A DNA stretch of 46,880 nucleotides from Escherichia phage BEK2 (MN158206.1), one strand, 5' to 3'; shown: positions 3,169 to 46,569, counted from the first letter of the stretch. Program-made: numbers and translations. Notes: a model not told the origin generated them from the sequence alone.

Positions 3169-4437
3169 ATGGTTAAGACAGACAGCTACGCCAATATATT
3201 TCTCGGCGGCAGTGATGGTAGTGAGATTTACGGGAGCTTACAGAATCAGGAACCTACAATTCTGGGTTCGCTTTATGCAAATAATGCCATAGTGCGTAGA
3301 ATTATCGACACAATCCCTGAGACAGCATTAGCGGCAGGATTCCACATTGATGGCATTGATGATGAGCCTGCCTTCTGGTCACGCTGGGATGATCTAGAAA
3401 TGACGCAGAATATTAACGATGCTTGGTCTTGGGCTAGATTATTCGGTGGAGCCGCTATTGTCGCTATCGTTAAGGACAATAGGGCGCTAACAAGTCCTGT
3501 CAGAGAAGGTGCCGAACTTGAAACTGTTAGAGTTTACGACCGCACACAAGTAAAAGTACAAACTCGCGAGGAGAATCCCCGTAACGCACGTTTTGGTAAG
3601 CCACTAACCTATCGCATTACCACAAATGAGAGCGATATGTTCTATGATGTGCATTACAGCAGAATTCACATCATTGACGGAGAGCGAATTCCTAACGTAA
3701 TGCGTCGGCAAAATGACGGCTGGGGCCGCAGCGTTCTATCCAGTGACATTCTTGACTCAATCAAGGATTACACCAACTGCGAACGACTGGCTACGCAACT
3801 ACTGAGAAGAAAGCAGCAAGCAGTGTGGAAAGCCAAAGGTCTGGCTGAGTTGTGTGATGATAGCGAGGGATTTGGTGCCGCAAGGTTGCGCCTAGCACAG
3901 GTTGATAATAATAGCGGAGTTGGTCAGGCGATTGGGATTGATGCAGAATCTGAAGAGTATAGCGTTCTAAACTCTGACATTGGCGGGATTGATGCGTTTC
4001 TGGATAAGAAGTTTGACAGAATCGTTGCTCTGAGCGGTATTCATGAAATTATCCTCAAGAACAAAAACGTTGGCGGCGTGTCATCAAGTCAAAACACTGC
4101 ACTTGAGACATTCCACAAGCTAATTGACCGCAAGCGTAACTCTGAGCTGCTTCCTGTTCTTGAGTTCTTAATTCCGTTCATCGTTAACGTTGACGAATGG
4201 TCGGTTGAGTTTAACCCCTTAGCTCAGGAATCAAGCAAGGACAAAGCGGAGATTCTGGAGAGGAACGTAAACAGCATCGCGACGCTAATTGCATCTGGCG
4301 CTATGGATATTGATGAGGCGAGAGATACATTGCGTACAATCGCTCCAGAGGTTAAGATTAGTGACGGTTCAGTAGAGACAGAGGTGACAATTAGTGAAAC
4401 CAGTAACGACCCGCTGGAAGTATCCGCAGACAATTGA
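3169..4437 (+). CDS. portal protein
   Basis: ATG 3169 after terminator (track start 3142 lies in the hairpin); ~420 aa, follows terL, precedes Mu-F-like head protein. Confidence 0.8.
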   Translation: MVKTDSYANIFLGGSDGSEIYGSLQNQEPTILGSLYANNAIVRRIIDTIPETALAAGFHIDGIDDEPAFWSRWDDLEMTQNINDAWSWARLFGGAAIVAIVKDNRALTSPVREGAELETVRVYDRTQVKVQTREENPRNARFGKPLTYRITTNESDMFYDVHYSRIHIIDGERIPNVMRRQNDGWGRSVLSSDILDSIKDYTNCERLATQLLRRKQQAVWKAKGLAELCDDSEGFGAARLRLAQVDNNSGVGQAIGIDAESEEYSVLNSDIGGIDAFLDKKFDRIVALSGIHEIILKNKNVGGVSSSQNTALETFHKLIDRKRNSELLPVLEFLIPFIVNVDEWSVEFNPLAQESSKDKAEILERNVNSIATLIASGAMDIDEARDTLRTIAPEVKISDGSVETEVTISETSNDPLEVSADN

Positions 4438-5122
4438 GAGCCAGGTTAACCGCAATCTAAGTATTGCGGTAACTGAGTTAATTTCAGCAATGAAGGAGTC
4501 AGCAACAAGGCTTAAAATTGATACTGCGGAGGAACTGGAGGAGGAGGATGGATACCTTGATGGGGTAATTGCGGCATTGGTGGCTTCCTTTATATCAACA
4601 ATCCCAGCCATAGGGGCGGCGATATACAGATACAATAGCTCTCAATTTCTTGCGCTTGCAATCAAGACCGGAGGAAGATCCAACCCTAGCGTTCTAGACC
4701 TTGAAGTTAATGGCATTAATGGCGATGAGCCGTGGTATAATGATGACCTTAATCAGTGGGTTTACACCACAAACAAGTCAGCGATTAAATTACTGAATAA
4801 CATTAAAGATGACTTCATTCAAACGGCATCAACAGCACAGAATGGTGACTACGTTGAGTTATCAGATAGGTACAAAACATACAGAAAGCGAACGGCAAAC
4901 ATCGCATCTGGGATTGTGTCAAGCCTAAACTCTACACTTATGAGGCGGAGGATTGATGATGCTGGCGTTAGTCGTTACATCTGGCATGGTATGCTGGACG
5001 ATAGGGAGCGCCAGTCTCACATAGCAAGAGAAGGCCTTAGCTTTAAACTTGGTGGTAACGATATATTTCCAGGTCAAGAATACGGCTGTCGTTGTTGGTC
5101 TGTTCCAGATTGGGAATCATAA
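4394..5122 (+). CDS. head morphogenesis protein (Mu gpF / SPP1 gp7-like)
   Basis: C-terminal motif 'RYIWHGMLDDRERQSHIAREG' typical of Mu-F family; GTG start at 4394 overlaps portal 3' end, start uncertain. Confidence 0.65.
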   Translation: MKPVTTRWKYPQTIESQVNRNLSIAVTELISAMKESATRLKIDTAEELEEEDGYLDGVIAALVASFISTIPAIGAAIYRYNSSQFLALAIKTGGRSNPSVLDLEVNGINGDEPWYNDDLNQWVYTTNKSAIKLLNNIKDDFIQTASTAQNGDYVELSDRYKTYRKRTANIASGIVSSLNSTLMRRRIDDAGVSRYIWHGMLDDRERQSHIAREGLSFKLGGNDIFPGQEYGCRCWSVPDWES

Positions 5123-5134
5123 TAGGAGAATTAA

Positions 5135-6223
5135 ATGAGTAAAATCCGCTATGATAGCGCGAAGGTGAAGGCTCGATTTGATGAAAACGGCTTTCTGGTT
5201 GATACCCCGATTGTTGCACGCGTCGGGGTGCAAACCTACTACCTTCCAGATGGCACAGAACGCAGAGAATTTAGACCAGCCTCGGAGGTCTTTAAGCCTG
5301 ATTCTCTGGATAGTTATCAGGGCAAACCAATTACATTAGGTCATGTATTTGTTAACTCAGATAATGCTAAAGAGGTCGTTGTAGGCGCGGTGTCTGGCTC
5401 AGCAATGCGTGAAGATTCAAATGTGATTGTTCCACTAACTGTTTACGACAAAGAATCAATCGAGAAGGCCAAAAATGGAATTGCTGGTGAGCTATCTGTA
5501 GGGTACTCAACTGTTGACGTTGAGTCCAAAGGCTGGGGTAGTAACGAAACTGGTGAGTATAAGCTAGATGGTGAGTATCAATCACAGGATGAAATTCCTC
5601 CTGACTGGGTTAGATTCGATGCGCTGCAAACTGAAATTAAAGTAAACCATGTCGCGCTGGTATACAAAGGAAGAGCGCAAGTAGCAAAGTTAAATTTTGA
5701 CGCTCAACAGGAAAACCCGTATACTACTGACGTTGATATCAATAAAGAGGATAAACAGGAAATGATTAAGATTAAACTCGACGGCGCGCAGGAATTCGAA
5801 GTTGCACCGGAAATCGCTTCTCACATCGAAGCACTGAACGCAAAGGCTGACACTGCAATCGCAGAGCGCGACGCACTGAAAGCCAAGGTTGATGCAATGC
5901 CTGCTGAAATCGAAGCTGCAGTTGCTAAAGCGAAAGCTGATGCTGATGCCCTGGCCGCTCTGGTTGCCGTTGCCGCTGAAGCTGGTGTCAAAGCTGATGG
6001 TCTGGATTCTAAAGGTATTAAAGTTGCCTACGTTAAAGAAATCTCCGGCCTTGATGTTAGTGAGAAGTCTGACGCATACATCGACGCGGCATTCGACATT
6101 GCCAAAGAATCTGATAAAATGGCTGAAGTACGTAAAGCGACTACCTCTTCCGATAAATCTGACAGCGCCGATGAGCCTAAGAAATTAGATCCGCGTGCTC
6201 GTTTAGCTAAAATTAAGAAATAA
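5135..6223 (+). CDS. scaffolding/prohead core protein
   Basis: N-terminal globular domain plus Ala/Lys/Asp/Glu-rich coiled-coil C-terminus 'AKADTAIAERDALKAKVDAMPAEIEAAVAKAKADADALAAL'; position before capsid genes. Confidence 0.55.
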   Translation: MSKIRYDSAKVKARFDENGFLVDTPIVARVGVQTYYLPDGTERREFRPASEVFKPDSLDSYQGKPITLGHVFVNSDNAKEVVVGAVSGSAMREDSNVIVPLTVYDKESIEKAKNGIAGELSVGYSTVDVESKGWGSNETGEYKLDGEYQSQDEIPPDWVRFDALQTEIKVNHVALVYKGRAQVAKLNFDAQQENPYTTDVDINKEDKQEMIKIKLDGAQEFEVAPEIASHIEALNAKADTAIAERDALKAKVDAMPAEIEAAVAKAKADADALAALVAVAAEAGVKADGLDSKGIKVAYVKEISGLDVSEKSDAYIDAAFDIAKESDKMAEVRKATTSSDKSDSADEPKKLDPRARLAKIKK

Positions 6224-6235
6224 GGAGTTATAAAC

Positions 6236-6757
6236 ATGGCAATTCGTTCCGTAGCACTGGCTGGTATGATTTCTGATACTTCGCTCTATAACATCGACGG
6301 CGCTTGCGTGGTTGGCGGTGCAGCACCAATTCCGGTTGGCACTTTTGTTGGCGTAACTTCAGCTCAGCCTGTAGATGGTCACAAGGTTGTTGGCCTACCA
6401 GTCGTAACTGGCTCGGCAGTTAAACCTTATGGTGTTGTTGTTAAATCTCATTACGAGACTCCAGATGGCACAGCTCGCGTAAATGAAGCAGTTAACGTAA
6501 TGACTCATGGTCGAATCTGGGTTCGTACAACTCTAGCGGCTGCGCCAGTTTTTGGTAGTAAGGTTTACGTAAACGCGAGTGGCGTTGTTACTACTGAGGT
6601 TGCTACCACTACTTGGGAGACTGGCTTTACATTTGCTGGCGGTTATGTGTCGGCTTACGCTGGCGGCGCTGACCCAATTAAGCAAGGTGAAAGCGTTGAT
6701 GGCGCACTGGTTGAAGTTCAGTTGATTCAATCCGCAGACTCAACCGTCGCCGCTTAA
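6236..6757 (+). CDS. head structural/decoration-like protein
   Basis: Gly/Val/Thr-rich 173 aa ORF with strong RBS AAGGAG, between scaffold and major capsid. Confidence 0.4.
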   Translation: MAIRSVALAGMISDTSLYNIDGACVVGGAAPIPVGTFVGVTSAQPVDGHKVVGLPVVTGSAVKPYGVVVKSHYETPDGTARVNEAVNVMTHGRIWVRTTLAAAPVFGSKVYVNASGVVTTEVATTTWETGFTFAGGYVSAYAGGADPIKQGESVDGALVEVQLIQSADSTVAA

Positions 6758-10497: not shown

Positions 10498-10502
10498 TTG
10501 CA

Positions 10503-10545
10503 TAGCACTTTTTGCTAAAGCACTTATCCAATCTTCCTGTATAGT
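10503..10545 (+). promoter_or_regulatory. composite early-type promoter (TAGCACTTTTTGCTA + -10 TATAGT)
   Basis: box 10503-10517, -10 10540-10545, leader 'ctcATCGAAACGAAA'. Confidence 0.6.
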
Positions 10546-21714: not shown

Positions 21715-21757
21715 ATAGTATCGCATCCTTGCGATCAGTGTTTAGCAATTAGTGCTA
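21715..21757 (-). promoter_or_regulatory. composite early-type promoter (box + -10 TACTAT)
   Basis: box 21743-21757 (minus sense TAGCACTAATTGCTA), -10 at 21715-21720, leader 'ctccATCGAAACGAAAT'. Confidence 0.55.
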
Positions 21758-22431
21758 TTCGCCAAAAATACAGCTCTTGCAAATCCACGAGGTGTAAGAC
21801 TGCGAATTACCTTTGTTTTCTTGCTCTTCCCGCCTAGCTTCTTGTGCTGGTCTGAGTATCCATCATTAACGTCAACTGGTGAGGCTTGAGGCCATTTAAA
21901 CCCATTGCCAGACCAAATGCACGTCTTCTTAGGATATGCGTCTCTTGGCTTTATTAGGTCGCTAAAAAACGGGTGTAAATCATCTTCCGGCAAATAGCCT
22001 CCGTATTCGTAAGGGTGAAACGTGTTATCAGGTTTACTCCAGAGCGATGACAGCACGCTGACTGGGTTCTCAATCATGTATGGAACTCCGTATTTTTCAG
22101 CCAGTTTAAAAGCAACCTTGCAAGTCTCTGCCGCCTCAATTTGGAAGTTTTGGTTGGCTAGGCGCTTACGCTCAAAGTGTGCTGCCCCGCTCACGGCTAA
22201 ATCCGTACAGGGCGGGAATGCCATGATAAAATCAGGCTTCACATCAAAATCAAAACTGGAATCTATCCAGGCATTAACGTATGTAATGTTCTCATGCTCA
22301 ACCTTTGCATTTAAGTCACTGTAGCTCCCGTGGTCGGAATCATCAAAGTTGAAGCAGCAGCATGTGTGGCCAGCTTCAGCCCAATCATTTACAGCCAAAC
22401 CAGAACCATCAAATAAAGACCAGATAACCAT
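21742..22431 (-). CDS. DNA methyltransferase (FxGxG / PPC / ENP motifs)
   Basis: 'LFDGSGLA', '[12 protein letters not shown]', 'MIENPV'; class (C5 vs N6) uncertain; C-terminus 'NSTNC' encoded by TAGCAC box. Confidence 0.55.
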
Positions 22432-22460: not shown

Positions 22461-22503
22461 ATTATACTGCACAAAATTTATTGTTCTTTAGCAATTCGTG
22501 CTA
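22461..22503 (-). promoter_or_regulatory. composite early-type promoter (box + -10 TATAAT)
   Basis: box 22489-22503, perfect TATAAT (minus) at 22461-22466. Confidence 0.6.
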
Positions 22504-23172
22504 TTTCTTTTCCAGCAGCAGCTTGATGTCAATGCCGAGATTATTCTCAATCAATCCGGTCAGCGCATCATTCTTTTCTTTAAGAGCGAAGCATTGCGCT
22601 TCATACTTAAATCTTTCCTCCATCTCATTCGAGCGACTAGCCCAACACTGGCGAGCCTCACAAGCCAGCATATCGAGTTTTTCATCGGTATTCTTATCCA
22701 TGAGTAAGATCTCATTTATTCTTTGCTCTGCAACAATGCGCTGGCTCAGGTGTGCATTTTGCGCATTAGCCACACCAAGCATCATTCGAGCCTCTTTTAG
22801 CTCATCAATGCTTACCATCCGGCTGATTACTTCTGCTTGTTTTTTAACTAACGCCTCGAGCTCATGAAGTCGACGGATAACTCTGCGACGAAGAACTACG
22901 CTGTAGCCAGTGATTAGCGTTTCGGTGAGTTCCTTGTTGAGTAAAATCTCAGATGTATAGCCTCGATTATCCGTAAGTACTTGATAATCATCATGACCCA
23001 AATCTGGGGCATCGTTATAATGTAACAATTCATTGATCATTTCCTTTGTGTCGCGAACGACGTGATCATGACGCTTACCTGTCAATTCAGCAATTTCCTT
23101 CGTGCTCATCATGGTTTTTGGCTGTTCTTTGTACGCTTCAATTTTCATTTTAGTCTCTCTTATGCTTTTCAT
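22501..23172 (-). CDS. Rha-family (phage regulatory protein Rha) domain protein with coiled-coil C-terminus
   Basis: 'MSTKEIAELTGKRHDHVVRDTKEM' matches Rha N-terminal domain; start 23172/23148/23112 uncertain. Confidence 0.65.
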   Translation of the reverse strand: MKSIRETKMKIEAYKEQPKTMMSTKEIAELTGKRHDHVVRDTKEMINELLHYNDAPDLGHDDYQVLTDNRGYTSEILLNKELTETLITGYSVVLRRRVIRRLHELEALVKKQAEVISRMVSIDELKEARMMLGVANAQNAHLSQRIVAEQRINEILLMDKNTDEKLDMLACEARQCWASRSNEMEERFKYEAQCFALKEKNDALTGLIENNLGIDIKLLLEKK

Positions 23173-23252: not shown

Positions 23253-23295
23253 AATATACCTAAAGATAGTCAGTTGTCTTTAGCAATTAGTGCTA
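23253..23295 (-). promoter_or_regulatory. composite early-type promoter (box + -10 TATATT)
   Basis: box 23281-23295, -10 (minus) 23253-23258. Confidence 0.5.
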
Positions 23296-23780
23296 TTTAT
23301 CGCCAATTTCACCACAAATCACAGTTACACGTAACCGATGTAACTCGATGTATACAATCTCATTCGCGGAAAATGATATACGCGCCGTTACGCAAATTTA
23401 CGCAATAGTTACATTAAAATATCTATATATATCAACCTTTTACTATTATTATTATTATATATATTACTGTGTATATCATGTAACTACTGTTCTGGAGTGT
23501 TCCGGTTATAATTTTAATATCATGTGGATTTATACAGTATTGTGTGGCAGCCATACCAATGCACCCCCCGCAAGAAACGGTATACACGATATACACGATG
23601 GTTACATTGAGCTATATCTGGGCTGAGATGCCATTTTACGTAACAAGTTGCAATGCCTACACGGAATTACAAGTATTCACGCGTAAGTTTAAATCAACGA
23701 TTGGCAAAACCAATTGGACTGGCTACGGTACCGAATATATAGTTACCTCATCGAAAGCAAGCAACCAGAGAGATACAGAA
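23296..23780. repeat. divergent control region A: iterons + AT-rich microsatellite tract (candidate origin/operator region)
   Basis: GTTAC-AC-GTAAC inverted repeat 23324-23335, TTACGCAA x2 (23386-23404), tandem TATACACGA x2 (23581-23598), (TA)n/(TTA)n tract 23415-23490, shared block 23604-23646. Confidence 0.5.
23714..23743 (+). promoter_or_regulatory. rightward sigma70-like promoter of region A
   Basis: TTGGAC ... TATAGT (23738-23743) followed by leader 'cctcATCGAAAGCAAGCA'. Confidence 0.45.
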
Positions 23781-24944: not shown

Positions 24945-24945
24945 A

Positions 24946-24988
24946 TAGCACGAATTGCTAAAACAAGGTGGGATAGCTGAGGTATAGT
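24946..24988 (+). promoter_or_regulatory. composite early-type promoter (TAGCACGAATTGCTA + -10 TATAGT)
   Basis: box 24946-24960, -10 24983-24988. Confidence 0.6.
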
Positions 24989-29116: not shown

Positions 29117-29140
29117 CGTGTAAAGTCTCCTTTTGTAAAA

Positions 29141-29155
29141 TAGCACGAATTGCTA
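29141..29155 (+). promoter_or_regulatory. orphan TAGCACGAATTGCTA box (no phased -10 for adjacent gene)
   Basis: perfect box between primase terminator and tail-fiber start codon, antisense to both. Confidence 0.4.
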
Positions 29156-29180
29156 AGTTGGATTGTAGCATCTTTCGGGT

Positions 29181-33028: not shown

Positions 33029-33444
33029 AAATTACAGACAAAGTTGACTACATTGAGTTTTACCATGGCCCGGTTAAGTCTTGCCCGAAAGAGGATGACG
33101 AGCAAATCTTTTGCTCTGATTGGGTTAAGTATAACTATCCAGAGATGGTATTTTTCCACTGCGTGAATGAGGGTAAGAAAACCATTGGTCAGGCAAGAAA
33201 AGACCAGGCCAAGGGGCTTCTCAAAGGCGTATCAGACTGTATGTTTCTTATTCCCGAATCTATCCGAGGAAAGTACCCTTTCGGAGCCATAGAGCTAAAG
33301 AGGGCTGGGAAGACGCAGGCTAGTCCGGTCAGCGACGAGCAGAAGTCATTCCTTAAAAGCGTAAGAGAATCAGGAGGTTTTGCCGGGGTAGCCTACGGTC
33401 GCGAGGGTTTTCTAGCGGCGTTTAAAGAAATGATTTCAAAATAG
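33025..33444 (+). CDS. VRR-NUC domain nuclease
   Basis: 'DCMFLIPES...GAIELKR' D..E.K core; coupled to helicase (ATGA overlap). Confidence 0.65.
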   Translation: MKITDKVDYIEFYHGPVKSCPKEDDEQIFCSDWVKYNYPEMVFFHCVNEGKKTIGQARKDQAKGLLKGVSDCMFLIPESIRGKYPFGAIELKRAGKTQASPVSDEQKSFLKSVRESGGFAGVAYGREGFLAAFKEMISK

Positions 33445-33484
33445 CACGAATTGCTAAAGACGTTTCGTTGAGTTGGTGTATTAT
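33442..33484 (+). promoter_or_regulatory. composite early-type promoter (TAGCACGAATTGCTA + -10 TATTAT)
   Basis: box 33442-33456, -10 33479-33484, leader 'ttcATCGAAACGAAACG'. Confidence 0.6.
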
Positions 33485-37463: not shown

Positions 37464-37543
37464 GATAATTTCCTTTCTCTTCTTAGTTTATATGGATTAA
37501 TAATAACAAAAGCCCACAAGGGGCTTTTAACAAAAGGTGCTAT

Positions 37544-37879
37544 TTAAGAGAATAACTCGTCGTCCGTCATTGTTCCTATATTCATCATCTCTTTTATGTA
37601 CTTGCTCTCATACCCGCTAAGTGCCTCGAAATTGAAATCAAACGGCCTCTTCAGGCTACCCTTGCTAACAAACTCACCACACTTACCATTAATGTAACCC
37701 GCACTCAACATCTTCGCGCAAAACTCCTTTGAAGCAGCGCTGCAAAATTCCCTATGCGACAACCCGGCGGCTTTGCTAAATCTCTGAGAGTCCTTGTGTT
37801 GGTAGATGAATCGCGCCAAATGCTGCCGTGTGAAATATGAATACGACTCGCAGAACTTAAATATATCTAGCAGGAACAT
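37544..37879 (-). CDS. hypothetical protein
   Basis: 111 aa Cys-containing ORF downstream of ATPase gene. Confidence 0.45.
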   Translation of the reverse strand: MFLLDIFKFCESYSYFTRQHLARFIYQHKDSQRFSKAAGLSHREFCSAASKEFCAKMLSAGYINGKCGEFVSKGSLKRPFDFNFEALSGYESKYIKEMMNIGTMTDDELFS

Positions 37880-37882
37880 TCA

Positions 37883-39466
37883 TCACCCCAGCAGTCGCGG
37901 ATTAATGTAAACCTTATCACCAATCAGGCACGTGTAGTTTTTCTCGTCAAGCATTGGCAGTAGGTGATCTTTAATCTTCGTCATTACCCCAGCCTGAGCC
38001 TCGAACGGCTTAACCTTTCGAGCAGCTTCATATAATGAGCGAATACCAACTACACCCTTGCCGTTCTTTCCTTGCTTGATCAGGATATCAATCAGCTTAT
38101 TCATCTCGGCATTATCGCCAGCGTGACCAGCGGCGTTAGCAGATGAAAGATAAGTCTTGCTAAGTTCATTGAACATAATTACAGCTTCTTGCATGGTATC
38201 AAGCTCAATCTCTCTTGACTTCTGTGGACTCCCGCCATTTGGGTTAAACCAGTTACGCACAGTGTGAAGAACCGCCGCAATCCTGATGGCCTGCTTATCG
38301 AACTTACCCAGGGCGCCGCGCAACATTGTGTGGGAATACTTCCCGCCGTCCGCAAGGTGAGGCTCCATCTCCTGACGTGCGCGGTTAAGATACTTCATTG
38401 CTGAGTTGCTCACTGTCAACTTAACATCTTGCTCATTCATTATTTCATGAACTAATCGGAAATAGTCGGCCTTGAGTCCACCATCAATTGGCTCATATGT
38501 TGAATCTCCATTCTCATCAACAAACACACGCTCGCCCAAAAATGACTTTTCACGCACAAGCAGAAATCGCTCCGACACACCGATACCACGTGCGCCAGCG
38601 TTCATGATTGCATTGATTGTTTCGTCTTGCGCAATTACTGAGATGCAACCCATAGCAACGAAGCTCATGTTGTTCTCTGCGTTCGCACGCGCAATGGACA
38701 CGTTACCAGCATCCCATGCCTTCAGTACAAGTTCGCTGTTCGTCTTCTTGGATCCGTCACCGTACGTCATACCTAGCAGTGAGTTGACGCTCGTCGCCTC
38801 ATCAGAGATAACCGCGAAGTTACCTTGTCGGTTGTTTATTCGTGCCAGACCTTCCGGCGTGGTGTCGGATACAGGGAAAACGATATCACAAAGTTTCTCG
38901 AGCTTTTCCTCAAGCTCCTCCTTCTCCTCAAAAAGAGAAGCCATCTCTGAAGGAGATTTCTCCTGCTTCATCTCTTTGGATAATGCAGATAGTTTGGCCA
39001 TGATCTTCTTGCGCTCACGCTTGCGAACTTCATTAAGACGCTCAGTCTCAGCAATCATTGGAGCAATCGATAGCGAGTTAATTGCTGATTTACCAGTTGA
39101 TGGCGGCTGGCTTGTCACGACGTAGAGCGCAGTTGGTTGTTGGGTTCCATGATACTCAACTGTAAATCGGCCCAGCATCGCAGCGGAAATACACCCCAGG
39201 AAGTGCATGTATGCGGACGACTCAGGAAACTGAACCGAACGAGCTATGTTAGATGACAGTTTGCCAACAACATCAATATCATTACCTAGTGAGATTACGG
39301 GATACTTGTCATTAGCTGCATCAATCTCGACCGGAGCCTTCCAAAATGATTGAGAATGACGATAGCCATTGGCATTGATAGCGACGCGCAGGGGTGGGAG
39401 GTTGTCCGCAGCAGCAATTGCCATAACCTGTTCAACAGACAGTTTATCTTCGTTGAAATCAAACAT
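37883..39466 (-). CDS. P-loop ATPase, putative replication initiator/helicase
   Basis: Walker A 'SQPPSTGKSA', Walker B 'FAVISDEAT'; N- and C-terminal segments paralogous to 42798..43322. Confidence 0.65.
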   Translation of the reverse strand: MFDFNEDKLSVEQVMAIAAADNLPPLRVAINANGYRHSQSFWKAPVEIDAANDKYPVISLGNDIDVVGKLSSNIARSVQFPESSAYMHFLGCISAAMLGRFTVEYHGTQQPTALYVVTSQPPSTGKSAINSLSIAPMIAETERLNEVRKRERKKIMAKLSALSKEMKQEKSPSEMASLFEEKEELEEKLEKLCDIVFPVSDTTPEGLARINNRQGNFAVISDEATSVNSLLGMTYGDGSKKTNSELVLKAWDAGNVSIARANAENNMSFVAMGCISVIAQDETINAIMNAGARGIGVSERFLLVREKSFLGERVFVDENGDSTYEPIDGGLKADYFRLVHEIMNEQDVKLTVSNSAMKYLNRARQEMEPHLADGGKYSHTMLRGALGKFDKQAIRIAAVLHTVRNWFNPNGGSPQKSREIELDTMQEAVIMFNELSKTYLSSANAAGHAGDNAEMNKLIDILIKQGKNGKGVVGIRSLYEAARKVKPFEAQAGVMTKIKDHLLPMLDEKNYTCLIGDKVYINPRLLG

Positions 39467-39539
39467 TACTTCTCTCCGTATTGTTTCTGAGCGGACATTA
39501 TATCAACGACCGCTTATAATTCATTATCAATTTTGCTAT

Positions 39540-39893
39540 TTACAGGTATTGCGCCTCAAAATGGTACGTCTGGCAAAGAGTGTAAAATCCAACATCCTCG
39601 CTGCGGTAAAGCTGCCAAGCATTACCATCCTCATCGTAAATGTAACCGGCATTTTGCCCTATCCCGGCATGCATAGATACCTGGTAGCGCTTTCCTTCTT
39701 TAAAGTCTTTTTTAACTCCTGACTTGTGGTTAACCTTTGTGCAGTAAAGCGTCTTAGTCTTGACGTACTTACCGCGCTCTTCGAGGTTAACCCATTTGCC
39801 ATCTTTCTTAATCTGCTCCACACCATCTTTAACGCGAGCTTTGTAGAGTACGTTTTCGTTGCTGATCCAGCTTTTAGTAATCGTAGTGGTCAT
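39540..39893 (-). CDS. hypothetical protein
   Basis: 117 aa ORF with own promoter. Confidence 0.5.
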   Translation of the reverse strand: MTTTITKSWISNENVLYKARVKDGVEQIKKDGKWVNLEERGKYVKTKTLYCTKVNHKSGVKKDFKEGKRYQVSMHAGIGQNAGYIYDEDGNAWQLYRSEDVGFYTLCQTYHFEAQYL

Positions 39894-39929
39894 TTTGTTT
39901 TCCTTTTCGTGTTTCGTTTCGATGAGATT

Positions 39930-39972
39930 AATATACAGGAAAAGCCCCGAAGGGCTTTAGCAATTAGTGCTA
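39930..39972 (-). promoter_or_regulatory. composite early-type promoter with embedded terminator hairpin
   Basis: box 39958-39972, hairpin aagccc-ttcg-gggctttt in spacer, -10 TATATT 39930-39935, leader 'tctcATCGAAACGAAAC'. Confidence 0.55.
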
Positions 39973-40208
39973 TTTATTTCCTTGAGTCCAAGTGGCGTTA
40001 TCACTACCTTATACCAAGTTCCAATCTCTGGCTTATTTACATTATATGCCAGCTCTACATAACCTAGCCGAAATAGTTTTGGTATACCTCTGGATGACTT
40101 GCCACAATCACGAATCCTGCCGCGATTAAGGTCATAGCTTATTTGATGAATCTCTCCATTATGAATACAGTGGAGGGTTTTTATTGCGGATTCAGAAATT
40201 TTAATCAC
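39957..40208 (-). CDS. hypothetical protein
   Basis: 83 aa, GTG start; C-terminus 'NSTNC' encoded by the box. Confidence 0.45.
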   Translation of the reverse strand: MIKISESAIKTLHCIHNGEIHQISYDLNRGRIRDCGKSSRGIPKLFRLGYVELAYNVNKPEIGTWYKVVITPLGLKEINSTNC

Positions 40209-40375
40209 TTATTTTCACCGTTAATATTCTTCGCATTCTCTATCGCCTTGAGCATAATTTCATGACTCTCAAGCAAGTCCTCGCGGAACCAGTCGCCGCA
40301 AGGCCAGCCCTTACCAGACATCTTTGACACAACTTCAAAATCCCAATAACTCAAATCTGAAGGTAATAGCATCAT
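40205..40375 (-). CDS. hypothetical small protein (56 aa)
   Basis: overlapping start/stop with both neighbours. Confidence 0.3.
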   Translation of the reverse strand: MMLLPSDLSYWDFEVVSKMSGKGWPCGDWFREDLLESHEIMLKAIENAKNINGENK

Positions 40376-40611
40376 TTCACCTCATCAAAAGTTGCAATCC
40401 CAGGAATAAACATTCCAACCTTCCATCCTGCAATGGCAATCCAGCCAGAATCGTTCTTGTGCGGTCGCTCAGCGCCTTTAATTAACCATTCGTTCGGGAT
40501 TGTCTTGCCGTTAATGATTAGTGGCTCAGCGTCGTACATAGAGCCTTTAACGAACGGTGTCAAAACCTTCTTATCGGTACTGGTAATAACGTTAGTGCAG
40601 CGAATTTTCAT
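40372..40611 (-). CDS. hypothetical protein
   Basis: 79 aa ORF. Confidence 0.5.
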   Translation of the reverse strand: MKIRCTNVITSTDKKVLTPFVKGSMYDAEPLIINGKTIPNEWLIKGAERPHKNDSGWIAIAGWKVGMFIPGIATFDEVK

Positions 40612-40781
40612 TGCACCACCTCAAACTCACCAGGGTGAATAACAAGCGGTTTAGATGTGCCATCCATTATTACCACCCTACCATCTCCGCAATCCATGAA
40701 TACATCGTAAACTTCGCCAATCTCAATGCCGTAATAATCTGTTGTGTAAATCGTGTCAAACTTAACAATCTTAATTTTCAT
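40608..40781 (-). CDS. hypothetical small protein (57 aa)
   Basis: GAGGAT RBS, ATGA overlap with downstream gene. Confidence 0.35.
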   Translation of the reverse strand: MKIKIVKFDTIYTTDYYGIEIGEVYDVFMDCGDGRVVIMDGTSKPLVIHPGEFEVVQ

Positions 40782-40791
40782 ATCTCAATCC

Positions 40792-40968
40792 TCAAAATGG
40801 AATGCAGTCTTGGCAGCCAAGTCCATCGCAGCACAGGAATTCATCCTCTGACTGGAATTGCTTAGCCAGATCAATATCTATTCGTCCGCGGACAACCATT
40901 TCGGTGTAATCTTCGTTAAGACCAATCAGTGCGCATTCGTGACGTAACTTATCTTTATCAATCTTCAT
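40792..40968 (-). CDS. hypothetical small Cys-rich protein (58 aa)
   Basis: 'CCDGLGCQDC' cluster; weak RBS. Confidence 0.3.
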   Translation of the reverse strand: MKIDKDKLRHECALIGLNEDYTEMVVRGRIDIDLAKQFQSEDEFLCCDGLGCQDCIPF

Positions 40969-41022
40969 ATCTATACCATCGTTTGGTTTGTGCCGGATGT
41001 CGTCCGGCGGCGATATAATTTA

Positions 41023-41262
41023 TTAGTGCTGCTTTGCTGTGTAAAACTTCCAGTCATCCTGGACTTCAATCAATGTCCCGTTGGCTATCATTGCACTAAG
41101 GCTATCTTCAGTAAGGAGAGTTCTCAGCCAGGTATATTTGTTTCCTACGCGAACATTGCCACAGTTATTAAACACGCTACCGTTTACCAGCATCATCTCA
41201 ACGCCTTTTGAGCCAGGCTTAGTGAAGAGGCGTTTTTCTGTTTTAGTGGTCTGGATGCTCAT
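41023..41262 (-). CDS. hypothetical protein
   Basis: 79 aa, GGAGA RBS, own promoter. Confidence 0.5.
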   Translation of the reverse strand: MSIQTTKTEKRLFTKPGSKGVEMMLVNGSVFNNCGNVRVGNKYTWLRTLLTEDSLSAMIANGTLIEVQDDWKFYTAKQH

Positions 41263-41300
41263 TTTTATCTCCGGTGTGTTCGTTTCGTTTCGATGAAGTA

Positions 41301-41343
41301 ACTATACGCCATCCGTGGCGGTGAGTTTTAGCAATTCGTGCTA
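41301..41343 (-). promoter_or_regulatory. composite early-type promoter (box + -10 TATAGT)
   Basis: box 41329-41343, -10 41301-41306, leader 'cttcATCGAAACGAAACG', spacer inverted repeat cgcca/tggcg. Confidence 0.6.
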
Positions 41344-41633
41344 TTGCGTTCGATGTATGCATTAATTTCTTCAGCAGTTTCCATTGCGGAGCGGAAAGCG
41401 CCTTTTGCGTGGCGAGAATCTCGGAATGACTGGAAAAATTTACGAGCAACGTTTGCGAACATCGCGCCAGTGATACGAGAATCACCGAAATTAGTTTCGA
41501 TTGAGTTACTGATGCCATCACGGAACTCATTCTCAGCCATGAACATCTCAGCCATTTCTGCGGTGGCGAAAAGGTCTGCCAGTGCTTGCATGTTTTCGTG
41601 GTCAGCTTTAGTGAAAAGGTTCATGTTAATCAT
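41328..41633 (-). CDS. hypothetical protein (first gene of leftward early operon)
   Basis: 101 aa; C-terminus 'NSTNC' encoded by box. Confidence 0.5.
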   Translation of the reverse strand: MINMNLFTKADHENMQALADLFATAEMAEMFMAENEFRDGISNSIETNFGDSRITGAMFANVARKFFQSFRDSRHAKGAFRSAMETAEEINAYIERNSTNC

Positions 41634-41670
41634 TTTTGTGTCTCCGTGAGTTCTTCGTTTCGATGGAGTA

Positions 41671-41714
41671 ATAATAGCGAATCACACCCGATCGGTCATT
41701 AGCAAAAAGTGCTA
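41671..41714 (-). promoter_or_regulatory. composite early-type promoter (box TAGCACTTTTTGCTA + -10 TATTAT)
   Basis: box 41700-41714, -10 41671-41676, leader 'ctccATCGAAACGAAGAA'. Confidence 0.55.
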
Positions 41715-42300
41715 TTCGTTAGATTTATGGATTGTTGCAGATATTGCAATGATTCACATAATTATTGCACATACAGCAATATTGCTTCAGATGCAATGAT
41801 GTTTTTGATTGTTGCGAAAAGTGAAATGAAGTGGGGAGTGAGCGAATGAAAGATGGATGGACTACCATACAAGTTGATTTTGATTCTGGCTGGGCCATTT
41901 TCACGCCTACACGTAACGCCAGTAGCGCGATGTAAGCCAAGGCCAATCGTTACGTGAGTTACGCGCAGCTACGCCCGGACTTACACTATAAGTGCTTAAT
42001 ATATATATATATCTTCTTTCTATTATTATTATTAATATTAATATTATTGTATGTAAGTCGTGTAACGTGGGTCCTAGCGATATCTATATGTTTTTTCCTA
42101 TCAGAATACATTATTGCTATTTTATGTGGGATTTAGCCAGTATGGGGCCATTGCACTCATTTGCCTCGTTACACGCACGACACGAAACTACATTGAGCTA
42201 TAGCTGGGCTGGTGTGCCATTTCGCGTAACGACCCCCAAAAGTTACCAAAAATTACACTTGACTACATGTGTAAGTCGGGATATGATGGACTCAACTTAA
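41715..42300. repeat. divergent control region B: ATTGCA iteron array, GTTACG repeats, AT-rich tract, two copies of the shared block (candidate origin)
   Basis: (A/G)TTGC(A/T) about 7 copies 41730-41815; block copies about 41887-41920 and 42190-42232; (TA)n/(TTA)n tract 41995-42055. Confidence 0.5.
42259..42287 (+). promoter_or_regulatory. strong sigma70 promoter (rightward early)
   Basis: -35 TTGACT, 17-bp spacer, -10 TATGAT. Confidence 0.65.
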
Positions 42301-42318
42301 ACGAGAGGAGTGATAGAG

Positions 42319-42798
42319 ATGAACGAGAAGGTAACATTAGGCCAAGTGATTCGTGAGATGGTAAAGGCGGCGCTTAAGTCTGAGGATAAGCAGATCAGCG
42401 TGACACTCAACAAGATTGAGAGCCTTATTGGCGCAGAGGAGGGTGGTCTACATAAGCTTAAGAGCTCATACATCTATAATACAACGGCTCGCATGCCTGA
42501 GTTGAGAGATGCCGGACTGAAGGCGACCCACCATTATGATGAGGATGAGGGTGATAGTGAGTTTGGTGAAACCACTCTGGCTGGGGAAAAGAAGTTAGTT
42601 ATCAAGCTGATTCCTGGAGCTGCAAACATTGGAATCAGGAAGAAGACCAACGACGCGATCAAGGATGAGGCAATCAATGGGTTCAAGGCCAAGATTTCGA
42701 AGGTGATGCCAGACCTCTCTGAGTATGAGGGTGAAGCGCTTGCAGCCGCCATGAAGGCCATTAAGGATTACCGTTTAATTATTGAGGAGATTAAGTAA
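42319..42798 (+). CDS. hypothetical protein (first rightward early gene)
   Basis: ATG 42319 with GAGGAG RBS (track GTG 42310). Confidence 0.55.
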   Translation: MNEKVTLGQVIREMVKAALKSEDKQISVTLNKIESLIGAEEGGLHKLKSSYIYNTTARMPELRDAGLKATHHYDEDEGDSEFGETTLAGEKKLVIKLIPGAANIGIRKKTNDAIKDEAINGFKAKISKVMPDLSEYEGEALAAAMKAIKDYRLIIEEIK

Positions 42799-43322
42799 TG
42801 TTTGACTTTAACGAGGATAAACTGACAGAAGAGCAGGTTATGCAAGTAGCCATGGCAGATAGCCTTCCACCACTACGTGTTGCAATCAGCGCTAACGGGT
42901 ATCGACAGTCAACGGCGTTTTGGGGTTCGATTGATACCTCAGAGGTGTATAGTGGTGATGAGCTTGGTGTACTGATTAAAATCATCAGGAAAATGGGAGT
43001 TAACGGCAAAGGAGTTGTCGGCATTAGGTCTCTATACGAAGGTGCTCGCAAGGTTAAGCCCTTTGAGGGTAGCAATGGAATCATGGCGCGTATTAAGGAT
43101 GAGCTCATCCCAGCTCTAGAGGAAATTAATATCGCTTGCCTAATTGGAGATAAGATTTATGTCCACCCAGCTATCATTGATGAGTACTGGCAACCCAACT
43201 TCAAAACTTACGAAGGTGAGCACCCCAGTAGACTACCACACCACTTGCGATACAGTGACGATGAGATAATAAAGGCGATTCGGTTCTACTGGGAAGCTAA
43301 ATCACTGCTTAGCGGCGGATAG
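42798..43322 (+). CDS. truncated paralog of the 37883..39466 ATPase (N- and C-terminal domains only)
   Basis: 'MFDFNEDKLTEEQVMQVAMADSLPPLRVAISANGYRQS' and 'NGKGVVGIRSLYEGARKVKPFE...CLIGDKIYVHP' match both ends of the 527-aa protein. Confidence 0.6.
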   Translation: MFDFNEDKLTEEQVMQVAMADSLPPLRVAISANGYRQSTAFWGSIDTSEVYSGDELGVLIKIIRKMGVNGKGVVGIRSLYEGARKVKPFEGSNGIMARIKDELIPALEEINIACLIGDKIYVHPAIIDEYWQPNFKTYEGEHPSRLPHHLRYSDDEIIKAIRFYWEAKSLLSGG

Positions 43323-43362
43323 CACGAATTGCTAAAAGGGGATTCATCCTGACTGGTATAAT
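43320..43362 (+). promoter_or_regulatory. composite early-type promoter (TAGCACGAATTGCTA + -10 TATAAT)
   Basis: box 43320-43334, perfect TATAAT 43357-43362. Confidence 0.6.
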
Positions 43363-44721: not shown

Positions 44722-44855
44722 TTTACATCCACACGTACTACACTGGTAAGTTTAATAGCGTTAAGCATGCTCGAGTTCACGATAGCTACGATAGTGCAAA
44801 GGCTCAATGGTTGGTTCTTGGTGGTGATATTAATTCATATAGAGTCGCTGAATAG
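44718..44855 (+). CDS. hypothetical small protein (45 aa)
   Basis: ATGA overlap upstream; stop TAG inside box. Confidence 0.35.
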   Translation: MIYIHTYYTGKFNSVKHARVHDSYDSAKAQWLVLGGDINSYRVAE

Positions 44856-44895
44856 CACTAATTGCTAAAACAGTATTGGGGTAATTTGTTATAGT
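44853..44895 (+). promoter_or_regulatory. composite early-type promoter (TAGCACTAATTGCTA + -10 TGtTATAGT)
   Basis: box 44853-44867, -10 44890-44895, leader 'ccccATCGAAACGAACGAGG'. Confidence 0.6.
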
Positions 44896-46492: not shown

Positions 46493-46569
46493 GCTCGAGT
46501 GGCGAAAGTGGATATCGCAAGAGACTTCTAATCTCTAGATTGCTGGTTCGAATCCAGCCTCGGGCGCCA
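46493..46569 (+). tRNA. tRNA-Arg (anticodon UCU)
   Basis: hand-folded cloverleaf: acceptor GCTCGAG/CTCGGGC (one G-U), D-stem GCGA/TCGC with GG in loop, anticodon stem AGAGA/TCTCT, loop CT-TCT-AA, T-arm GCTGG-TTCGAAT-CCAGC, discriminator G, encoded CCA. Confidence 0.8.

Follow-up and report, generated by a model that had tools for sequence, protein, structure and literature searches.

A Motor-less Paralog of the DUF3987 Helicase Ends in T1-like Coliphages, a Candidate Modulator of Replication Initiation

The genome of a T1-like coliphage (family Drexlerviridae) encodes, besides a 527-aa replication-type ATPase of the DUF3987 family, a 174-aa paralog that keeps the two end domains of the ATPase and lacks its motor. 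We tentatively prefer, at less than even confidence, to read the short protein as an optional factor that restrains or times initiation, that is, a motor-less mimic of the helicase specificity module. The observations behind this proposal are the homology of the end domains, the lack of a motor in the short protein, purifying selection on the short gene, the matching of its product to the cognate helicase, the co-variation of a nearby noncoding block with the helicase ends, and the frequent loss of the gene. The features of the window, by which we mean the whole 46,880-nucleotide stretch of DNA analyzed, are collected in Table 1.

Table 1. Positions of the helicase gene, its short paralog, and the elements around them, counted from the first nucleotide of the window
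Feature	Position	Strand	Remark
Helicase gene, DUF3987/SF6 (MCM-like), 527 aa	37883..39466	-	T1 ST9 orthologue
Helicase C-terminal winged-helix (WH) domain, aa 448-527	37886..38125	-	common to short paralog
Helicase Walker B AVISDE, aa 218-223	38798..38815	-	
Helicase Walker A PPSTGKS, aa 121-127	39086..39106	-	
Helicase N-terminal three-helix domain, aa 1-45	39332..39466	-	common to short paralog
Noncoding block, type A allele	41694..41880	.	contains TTGC-centered repeats and also palindromes (ATTGTTGC, ATTGCAAT, GCAATATTGC); putative cis target of helicase end module
21-nt T1-like repeat, another copy	41699-41715		
(TA)n/(TTA)n AT-rich tract	41995..42060	.	flanking TTACRC motifs; resembles a DNA-unwinding element; conserved in all relatives
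Sigma-70-like promoter TTGACT-17-TATGAT	42259..42287	+	rightward early operon; consensus scan
DUF7174 gene	42319..42798	+	PF23796, E = 7e-48; directly upstream of short paralog
Shine-Dalgarno GAGGAG for short gene	~42784-42789	+	
Short motor-less paralog gene (phrog_7327), 174 aa	42798..43322	+	
Short paralog, N-domain	42798-42932	+	
Short paralog, winged helix	42948-43178	+	
Short paralog, conserved tail	43179-43319	+	
21-nt T1-like repeat copy (sense ATAGCACnnnTTGCTAAAA)	43319..43335	-	starts at short-gene stop codon

The first-pass annotation had taken the long protein for a replication ATPase, and the present analysis agrees. The protein matches PF13148 in Pfam (aa 81-430; 141.3 bits, gathering cut-off 27) and has an MCM-type AAA+ fold. 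When conservation of the Walker motifs was scored across 45 helicase homologues (alignment A2), Q120, P121, P122, G125, and K126 proved invariant, as did S221 and E223, with D222 nearly so. DUF3987 proteins have been described as replicative helicases of SF6 that carry a C-terminal wHTH (PMC4889955), and helicase activity has been proven for one member (PMC11724360). The 527-aa protein shares the Pfam match, Walker A and B, the MCM-like AAA+ fold, and the C-terminal winged helix with the DUF3987/SF6 phage helicases (T1 ST9; AgaPH), and its unwinding activity and role in replication are predicted by analogy with this family. It differs from the family at its N-terminus, which is a 45-aa three-helix domain rather than a PriCT or primase domain, the primase being encoded here by a separate, distant gene, the homologue of T1 ST24. 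A separately encoded paralog consisting of the end domains only is likewise absent from descriptions of the family. Helices 11-21, 25-33, and 36-41 of the N-terminal domain are present in the predicted models of both the helicase and the short protein, and the helicase WH domain is modeled as helix 451-468, strand 472-474, helices 475-482 and 494-508, and strands 512-515 and 518-521. Mean pairwise identity within the helicase family is 56% in the core, 41% in the WH domain, and 38% in the N-domain, the most variable part of the protein.

Both ORFs lie on the strands and at the positions first proposed for them, and the central claim of the first-pass annotation, that roughly the first 45 and last 75 residues of the ATPase recur in the short protein, is borne out by protein alignment. 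In composition-adjusted BLASTP, aa 1-69 of the short protein align with helicase aa 1-73 at 55% identity (E = 7e-21) and aa 51-127 with helicase aa 448-526 at 59% identity (E = 1e-29); the first 42 residues of the two proteins are 76% identical without a gap. The N-terminal homology extends to the DNA as an inverted repeat (39341-39471 versus 42793-42923; 131 nt, 71% complementary). A low-complexity artefact can be eliminated as the source of the similarity on the basis of the composition-adjusted E values and a DNA identity of 70-76%. Helicase residues ~46-447, with Walker A and B inside, have no counterpart in the short protein, and the latter ends in a 47-aa tail that has no paralog elsewhere in the window and is carried by no helicase, again as had been proposed. 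The short paralog keeps, in other words, the interaction- and DNA-binding-type domains of the full-length protein without its catalytic domain. It matches phrog_7327 over the full length of the profile (E = 1.3e-76; aa 1-173 align with positions 1-178 of a 179-position profile), a family annotated as "unknown function" in PHROGs. Searches of Pfam, NCBIfam, and PDB sequences returned no match to the end domains or the tail, and the hits of a BFVD fold search were confined to family members and helicase fragments. Conservation of the tail extends to family members that are only 25-40% identical, and no adaptor motif of known type was found in it.

The paralogy is not recent. At third codon positions the paralogs have an identity of 0.29-0.55, and dS has reached saturation in all genomes, L038 included, which rules out a recent duplication or a recent gene conversion; the short gene represents an old, conserved gene family. 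Helicase orthologues are likewise saturated at synonymous sites, and so the timing cannot separate an old conversion from co-evolution.

The earlier description of two inverted genes flanking an intergenic region is confirmed: the genes are divergent around 41650-42310. They are not its immediate neighbors, however; nine small ORFs separate it from the helicase gene and the DUF7174 gene lies between it and the short paralog. The DUF7174 stop codon overlaps the start of the short gene (TAATG), and the two genes are adjacent at every locus examined. The short paralog is the second gene of a rightward early operon; the leftward operon, upstream of which the intergenic block is located, ends with the helicase gene. 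We infer that the short protein is made early from the promoter-like site, which recurs at the same alignment position in relatives, the Shine-Dalgarno sequence, the translational coupling, and the purifying selection described below. The region is also marked by a 21-nt T1-like repeat, an element described in phage TLS (PMC11447400), of which the window holds 15 copies against 0.05 expected.

Alignments indicate that divergent short paralogs carry lineage-specific residues of the end domains of their own helicase. The helicase of L038 differs from that of the window phage (BEK3) at 38 N/WH sites; at these sites, the L038 short paralog has the residue of its own helicase at 18 and that of BEK3 at 6, and the corresponding tallies for seven other short paralogs are 139 for the BEK3 state and 33 for the L038 state. 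The sample is small and comprises this one paired genome together with two unpaired lineage matches. The N-domain of the short paralog P0253 is identical to that of helicase P0184 at 41 of 47 residues and 41% identical to that of the BEK3 helicase, with a third-codon identity of 0.36, and the P0245 N-domain is 76% identical to P0131 and 51% identical to P0121. The contigs of P0245, P0253, P0250, P0271, and P0244 end before the helicase gene.

The short gene is present in Braunvirinae, Rogunavirinae, and Nouzillyvirus and absent from T1 as well as from other Drexlerviridae that carry the same helicase. Hundreds of intact copies of conserved length exist; some 100 or more Drexlerviridae records carry both genes, and 112 records have the short gene at full length. 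The dN/dS is 0.15-0.37, well below 1 in every domain, with dS saturated; by this pattern of substitution the gene is under purifying selection and functional where intact. The gene is also recurrently disrupted. In-frame stops occur at 7 of 23 loci, versus 2 of ~190 gene-locus pairs in 17 neighboring genes (Fisher p = 2e-6), and other lesions include a frameshift, internal deletions, and complete absence. Among the same genomes, the short gene evolves faster than the helicase (46-87% versus 76-100% identity). The recurrent disruption suggests that the gene is dispensable and possibly costly, and it fits any dispensable accessory gene equally well. Frequent nonsense, frameshift, and deletion alleles are what a nonfunctional remnant of a partial duplication would show, but we strongly disfavor this reading as very improbable, given the many intact copies of constant length, the low dN/dS at saturated dS, the retention of the tail in divergent members, and the fixed synteny and translational coupling. 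A short copy that tracks its own helicase and yet is often knocked out suggests an optional modulator of replication initiation.

The cognate matching, the block co-variation, and the recurrent inactivation are compatible as well with a positively acting adaptor at the origin, or with a decoy of protective function. As a non-essential accessory factor, the short protein would mark or remodel the origin, or bridge through its tail to the primase or a host factor, and so recruit the cognate helicase or assist its loading. The homology and cognate matching apply equally here, the gene stands early in its operon, the conserved tail could serve as a recruitment motif, and T1-like phages have no annotated separate initiator or loader (PMC11447400). 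We nevertheless consider this role unlikely: T1 and the other Drexlerviridae with the same helicase manage without the gene, about one-third of the genomes examined carry a knock-out, which would be unexpected if the protein improved replication, and the tail is without a known adaptor motif. Alternatively, the short protein could sequester a helicase-targeting factor of the host or of a satellite, or poison the helicases and origins of co-infecting relatives, and would then have no benefit or carry a cost on permissive laboratory hosts. Such a mimic must track the cognate helicase, as is seen, and the mosaic early region, the faster evolution relative to the helicase, and the presence/absence and nonsense polymorphism are typical of conflict genes. 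However, we know of no defense system or inhibitor directed against the ends of DUF3987 helicases, the defense literature checked concerns other helicases or other proteins, none of the domains has a dN/dS anywhere near 1, and no defense or anti-defense family was matched in Pfam, PHROGs, or NCBIfam. We consider a decoy or weapon unlikely as well.

The noncoding block is a possible cis site for the helicase ends. The type A allele is 82-97% identical across 20 other loci despite different flanking genes, and in L035, L038, and L040 it is replaced by a type B allele. Where type B is present, the helicase ends are divergent (L038, N 62% and WH 76%; L035, N 73% and WH 87%), despite a small terminase (TerS) that is 89-90% identical to that of BEK3. 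Conversely, type A is kept in L013 and L039, although their TerS is only 53-61% identical, and in L034, where the helicase is 86% identical overall and its ends are 98% and 91% identical. Type-specific residues lie in the stretches NGKGVVGIRS versus AGKGFVSLRA and CLIGDKVY versus CMIDDRVY. On these three type B loci, drawn from few independent lineages, the block allele tracks the helicase N/WH domains and not the small terminase, which makes the block look origin-like; co-inheritance by linkage could contribute to the pattern, all elements lying within ~5 kb. Assignment of the block as a TerS-specific pac site is weakened by its dissociation from TerS. Part of the block, namely its left edge (AGATTT), may still be the pac site: the TLS pac has been assigned to AGATTT (PMC11447400), and coordinate 1 of the T1 record falls inside the homologous GATTGTTGC motif. 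For TLS, no replication origin could be identified (PMC11447400). For TTACRC, a motif chosen post hoc, 7 occurrences were counted in 41650-42310, where 0.9 would be expected.

This arrangement resembles that of SaPI Rep and SCCmec Cch, self-loading MCM-like initiator helicases whose C-terminal winged helix recognizes iterons on either side of an AT-rich stretch of the origin and is required for the helicase to be active (PMC9371898). The phage protein likewise combines an AAA+ motor with a C-terminal winged helix, and the phage has a repeat block, next to an AT-rich tract, whose allele varies together with the helicase ends; when tested for membership in the sequence family of SaPI Rep and SCCmec Cch, the 527-aa protein fell outside it. 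The palindromes ATTGCAAT and GCAATATTGC, which sit in the block upstream of the leftward operon, could also be the targets of a repurposed DNA-binding protein, in which the winged helix, dimerized via the C-terminal amphipathic helix that is conserved family-wide, regulates the divergent early promoters and the tie to the helicase is only historical. This is quite improbable in our view, as it leaves unexplained why lineage-specific N/WH residues are shared with the cognate helicase despite saturated synonymous divergence, and the N-domain is acidic (pI 4.3).

Returning to the modulator reading, we propose that the MCM-like helicase probably self-loads at the origin, with the three-helix domain at its variable N-terminus and the winged helix at its C-terminus forming a specificity module that would recognize the origin, a partner protein, or both. 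The short protein would be this module without the motor, joined to the conserved tail. By occupying the ligand of the helicase end module, it would limit or time helicase loading. The allele-specific repeat block at 41694-41880, next to the AT-rich tract, is most likely part of this ligand, and the helicase ring itself may be another part. Cognate matching, block co-variation, and recurrent inactivation fit a dispensable or costly mimic, as expected of a negative regulator. The first-pass annotation saw in this architecture a dominant-negative or copy-control regulator, a view that is thus supported in part. The strongly conserved tail is not needed by a pure competitor, and the modulator model leaves it unexplained. 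A more ambitious version, which we hold to be doubtful, treats the helicase end module, the short paralog, and the two-allele block as one co-evolving system. The block would be the origin of T1-like phages, and the short paralog an antagonist specific to that origin, which early in infection would sit on the origin or cap the helicase, setting when, how often, or for which genome (self or that of a co-infecting relative) the helicase self-loads.

A truncated regulator of the proposed kind would have precedents. Papillomavirus E8^E2, Tn5 Inh, and the short R6K pi keep the DNA-binding or oligomerization part of a protein without its catalytic or activating part and act as negative regulators; E8^E2 additionally gains a function from a short unique peptide. 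These proteins are made from the same gene as the full-length protein, via alternative starts or splicing, whereas the short paralog is the product of a separate and anciently diverged gene in another operon and joins the two ends of its parent. In archaeal and eukaryotic MCM, a C-terminal winged helix on the MCM-type motor modulates activity or mediates loading contacts. There it acts in cis within the helicase polypeptide, whereas the phage encodes an additional, free copy.

Among coliphages, T1-like phages (Drexlerviridae) are common; they contaminate fermentations and are candidates for therapy. This locus offers a testable triad, namely, an MCM-like helicase with variable ends that look like specificity determinants, a free copy of those ends, and an allele-specific block by an AT-rich tract. 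Isogenic comparisons are already at hand in the natural knock-outs, such as DTL versus BEK3 or JeanPiccard (Bas02), phages with an intact copy. If the short protein modulates loading, the regulatory winged helix of MCM-type helicases would have a counterpart that is encoded by its own gene and acts in trans, and this counterpart would be a natural tool for dissecting the self-loading of SF6 helicases.

Protein alignment bore out the homology that the first-pass annotation had proposed for the ends of the helicase, a 527-aa DUF3987/superfamily 6 MCM-like protein, and of the 174-aa short paralog; the similarity is real, and a composition artefact can be eliminated as its source. The window corresponds to Escherichia phage BEK3 (MN158207.1; Drexlerviridae, Braunvirinae), its positions being those of the record minus 4. 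Both ORFs are present where they had been placed, and both are labelled "hypothetical protein" in that GenBank record. By BLASTP, helicase residues 1-73 match short-paralog residues 1-69 (55% identity, E 7e-21), with residues 1-42 of the latter aligning ungapped at 76% identity, and helicase residues 448-526 match residues 51-127 (59% identity, E 1e-29). As had been claimed, the ATPase core is missing: helicase residues ~46-447, which contain Walker motifs A (PPSTGKS) and B (AVISDE), both invariant among homologues, lack a counterpart in the short paralog. The 47-residue tail of the short paralog has no second copy in the genome. The N-terminal arms are recognizable in DNA too, as an inverted repeat 131 nt long with 71% complementarity, and the identity of both genes begins 5 nt 5′ of each ATG (AAGTAATG).

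Features of the window and of related loci (locus handles, L0xx, precede coordinates outside the window)
Feature	Location	Strand	Remark
phrog_2794 ORF	37544-37879	-	111 aa, directly downstream of helicase, conserved; in BEK3 record solely as shorter 55-aa version
Helicase	37883..39466	-	527 aa
phrog_2684 ORF	39540-39893	-	117 aa, directly upstream of helicase; conserved in 14 BEK3-type loci examined
Type A block	41694-41880		between divergent operons
(TA)n(TTA)n tract	41995-42060		conserved
Sigma-70-like promoter	42259-42287		TTGACT-17-TATGAT
DUF7174	42319..42798	+	ATG 42319 (GenBank) or GTG 42310 (longest ORF)
Short paralog	42798..43322	+	174 aa
tRNA-Arg (anticodon TCT)	46493-46569	+	near right window end; conserved in JeanPiccard and AHP42
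TTAGCAAnnnGTGCTAT copies 1-8	504-520, 2649-2665, 10502-10518, 21742-21758, 22488-22504, 23280-23296, 24945-24961, 29140-29156
TTAGCAAnnnGTGCTAT copies 9-15	33441-33457, 37527-37543, 39957-39973, 41328-41344, 41699-41715, 43319-43335, 44852-44868
Type B block	L035 about 6150-6350; L038 about 4300-4520; L040 18-225		mutually conserved
HNH gene, DTL gp12	L002 6326-6847		in leftward operon
HNH gene, T1 ST8	L032 46085-46624		directly upstream of helicase
Nonsense allele, DTL	L003 8001-8519		codon 141, TAG; hence gp16 annotated 140 aa
Nonsense allele, 44,219-bp vB_EcoS group			codon 141, TGA
Nonsense allele	L007		codon 37, TAA
Nonsense allele	L009		codon 34, TGA, plus frameshift
Nonsense alleles, Msk			codons 37 and 138
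Nonsense allele, metagenome contig	L023		in-frame stop
Frameshift	L022
In-frame deletion	L031		51 aa left
Deletion, phage ES	L014		only tail retained

The short paralog is a member of phrog_7327 (E 1e-76), annotated as of unknown function, and is found at full length in 112 phage records and in >120 metagenomic clusters at 90% identity (170-187 aa). Searched with a profile, 1.8 billion representatives gave matches to this family, its fragments and the helicases only. An AF2 model (pLDDT 76, pTM 0.66) places N-terminal helices at residues 11-21, 25-33 and 36-41, the same three as in the helicase. A canonical winged helix (55-122) comes next, then a disordered segment (128-150) and a terminal helix (154-171), whose motif E-E-V-x-x-A-I-x-F-Y-R-x-x-K is retained in members of just 25-40% overall identity. 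The 13 intact copies compared give dN/dS values of 0.15 (N-domain), 0.25 (winged helix) and 0.37 (tail), at a dS close to 1 or higher. The family spread, the conserved motif and these ratios indicate that the short paralog is a functional gene and not a relic, and a dead remnant is strongly disfavored. We note that the profile search also brought up P0273, a 633-aa protein of non-phage character in which five stretches in tandem match the N-domain profile weakly (motif AEAEGLPL-x-SA-x-SSGY-x-HV); the likely explanation is an unrelated repeat domain that has a short motif in common with the N-domain.

In every locus examined, the short paralog lies directly 3′ of DUF7174, with stop and start overlapping; counted from a sigma-70-like promoter it comes second, and it is preceded by a GAGGAG Shine-Dalgarno sequence. 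Family members are present in Braunvirinae, Rogunavirinae (AHP42_64, JK06 JK_46) and Nouzillyvirus. T1 has no short paralog even in a profile search, Klebsiella weberviruses match the helicase only, and one Braunvirinae-like contig runs from DUF7174 straight to the next gene; the short paralog is therefore an accessory gene. It is disrupted in about a third of related genomes (L003, L005, L007, L009, L011, L014, L022, L023 and L031) by nonsense, frameshift and deletion alleles that are independent events, whereas the genes around it are intact. The stops cluster near both domain borders, at codons 34-37 and 138-141, and the codons downstream of them are still conserved, so the disruptions are recent. 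A tblastn screen found in-frame stops in 7/23 loci for the short paralog versus 2/~190 gene-locus pairs for 17 neighboring genes (Fisher p 2e-6); one of the seven, phage ES, is a deletion on inspection, and the resulting 6/23 leaves the conclusion unchanged. All loci with a disrupted short paralog have an intact helicase gene and an intact DUF7174.

Across related genomes, helicase identity is 76-100% and that of the short paralog 36-87%. In a neighbor-joining tree of the N-domain and winged-helix segments, 119 short paralogs form a single clade without any helicase, nearest the BEK3-type helicases. The informative paired case is contig L038, whose helicase is 62% (N-domain) and 76% (winged helix) identical to that of BEK3. 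At the 38 end-domain sites where these helicases differ, the L038 short paralog agrees with its own helicase 18 times and with that of BEK3 six times, versus 139 BEK3 and 33 L038 states in seven other short paralogs; NGMRY, GIS-L, AGKGFVSLR and CMI(D/N)(D/N)RVY are examples common only to the L038 pair. Two unpaired short paralogs behave similarly: the P0253 N-domain is identical to helicase P0184 at 41/47 positions, against just 41% identity with the BEK3 helicase, and the P0245 N-domain matches P0131 (76% identity) better than P0121 (51%). Third-position identity between paralogs is 0.29-0.55 everywhere (P0253/P0184, 0.36, with dN 0.11); synonymous sites are thus randomized, so that recent conversion tracts are absent and the amino acid match has been kept by selection. 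Because helicase orthologues are saturated as well (dS 2.2), the match may equally reflect old gene conversion, re-duplication or residue-by-residue co-evolution. A repurposed regulator appears quite improbable.

The block between the divergent operons gives a second layer of co-variation. Type A, with TTGC-centered repeats and palindromes, keeps 82-97% identity across 20 other loci despite strongly diverged flanking genes; next to it come TACGC/TTACRC motifs (7 vs 0.9 expected, the motif having been chosen post hoc) on either side of the (TA)n(TTA)n tract. Type A occurs in 21 loci, and type B, an unrelated allele at the same position, in three. Type B accompanies divergent helicase ends (L038, N-domain 62% and winged helix 76%; L035, 73% and 87%) with a small terminase 89-90% identical to that of BEK3, whereas type A is kept in L039 and L013, where the small terminase is just 61% and 53% identical, and in L034, where the helicase is 86% identical overall and its ends 98% and 91%. 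The allele thus tracks the helicase ends and not the small terminase, which speaks more for an origin-like site than for a pac site, within the limits set by linkage within 5 kb and few type B lineages. We regard the block as a candidate origin of T1-like phages. Two caveats apply: T1 record coordinate 1, the annotated terminal repeat start, falls inside the homologous GATTGTTGC motif, and AGATTT, to which TLS pac was assigned (PMC11447400), also occurs at the left edge of the block. The window also holds fifteen copies of TTAGCAAnnnGTGCTAT (0.05 expected), all intergenic and always ATAGCACnnnTTGCTAA in the sense of local transcription; the same element has been described in phage TLS as a 21-nt repeat, aaATAGCACnnnTTGnTAAAA (PMC11447400), and T1 also carries many copies.

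DUF3987 has been assigned to helicase superfamily 6 (PMC4889955), and 5′-3′ helicase activity was demonstrated for one PriCT-DUF3987 protein (PMC11724360); a sequence search detected no solved structure of any relative. T1-like phages encode a separate primase, with no polymerase and no annotated initiator (PMC11447400). The helicase, whose T1 orthologue is ST9, lies near the distal end of the divergent leftward operon. HNH homing-endonuclease genes of DTL and T1, absent from BEK3, show mosaic turnover around it. The adjacent phrog_2684 ORF may encode a helicase partner; its match to the winged-helix ssDNA-binding protein Sul7s is very weak (E 0.036, far below cut-off). Mean pairwise identity in the helicase family is 38% in the N-domain, 41% in the winged helix and 56% in the AAA+ core, as expected if the ends are specificity modules.

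Our literature searches turned up no account of this paralogy, and databases give the family as unknown. Domain-deleted antagonists of replication proteins are familiar from other systems; a gene of its own that joins the N- and C-terminal ends of an SF6 helicase and follows the cognate helicase in evolution is, to our knowledge, without precedent. SaPI Rep and Cch use their C-terminal winged helix to recognize the iterons of the origin and need it for helicase activity (PMC9371898), a role that we use as an analogy. Together with the two layers of co-variation and dispensability, it leads us to propose that the short paralog would be a motor-less mimic of the helicase specificity module, made early in infection, competing for the ligand of that module, which may be origin DNA, the ring of the helicase or some partner protein. 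We consider a positive adaptor less likely, and a decoy or exclusion factor no likelier than an adaptor. The conserved tail is not accounted for by simple competition and suggests an added contact or dimerization element. Such competition would modulate, most likely negatively, the self-loading of the MCM-like helicase.
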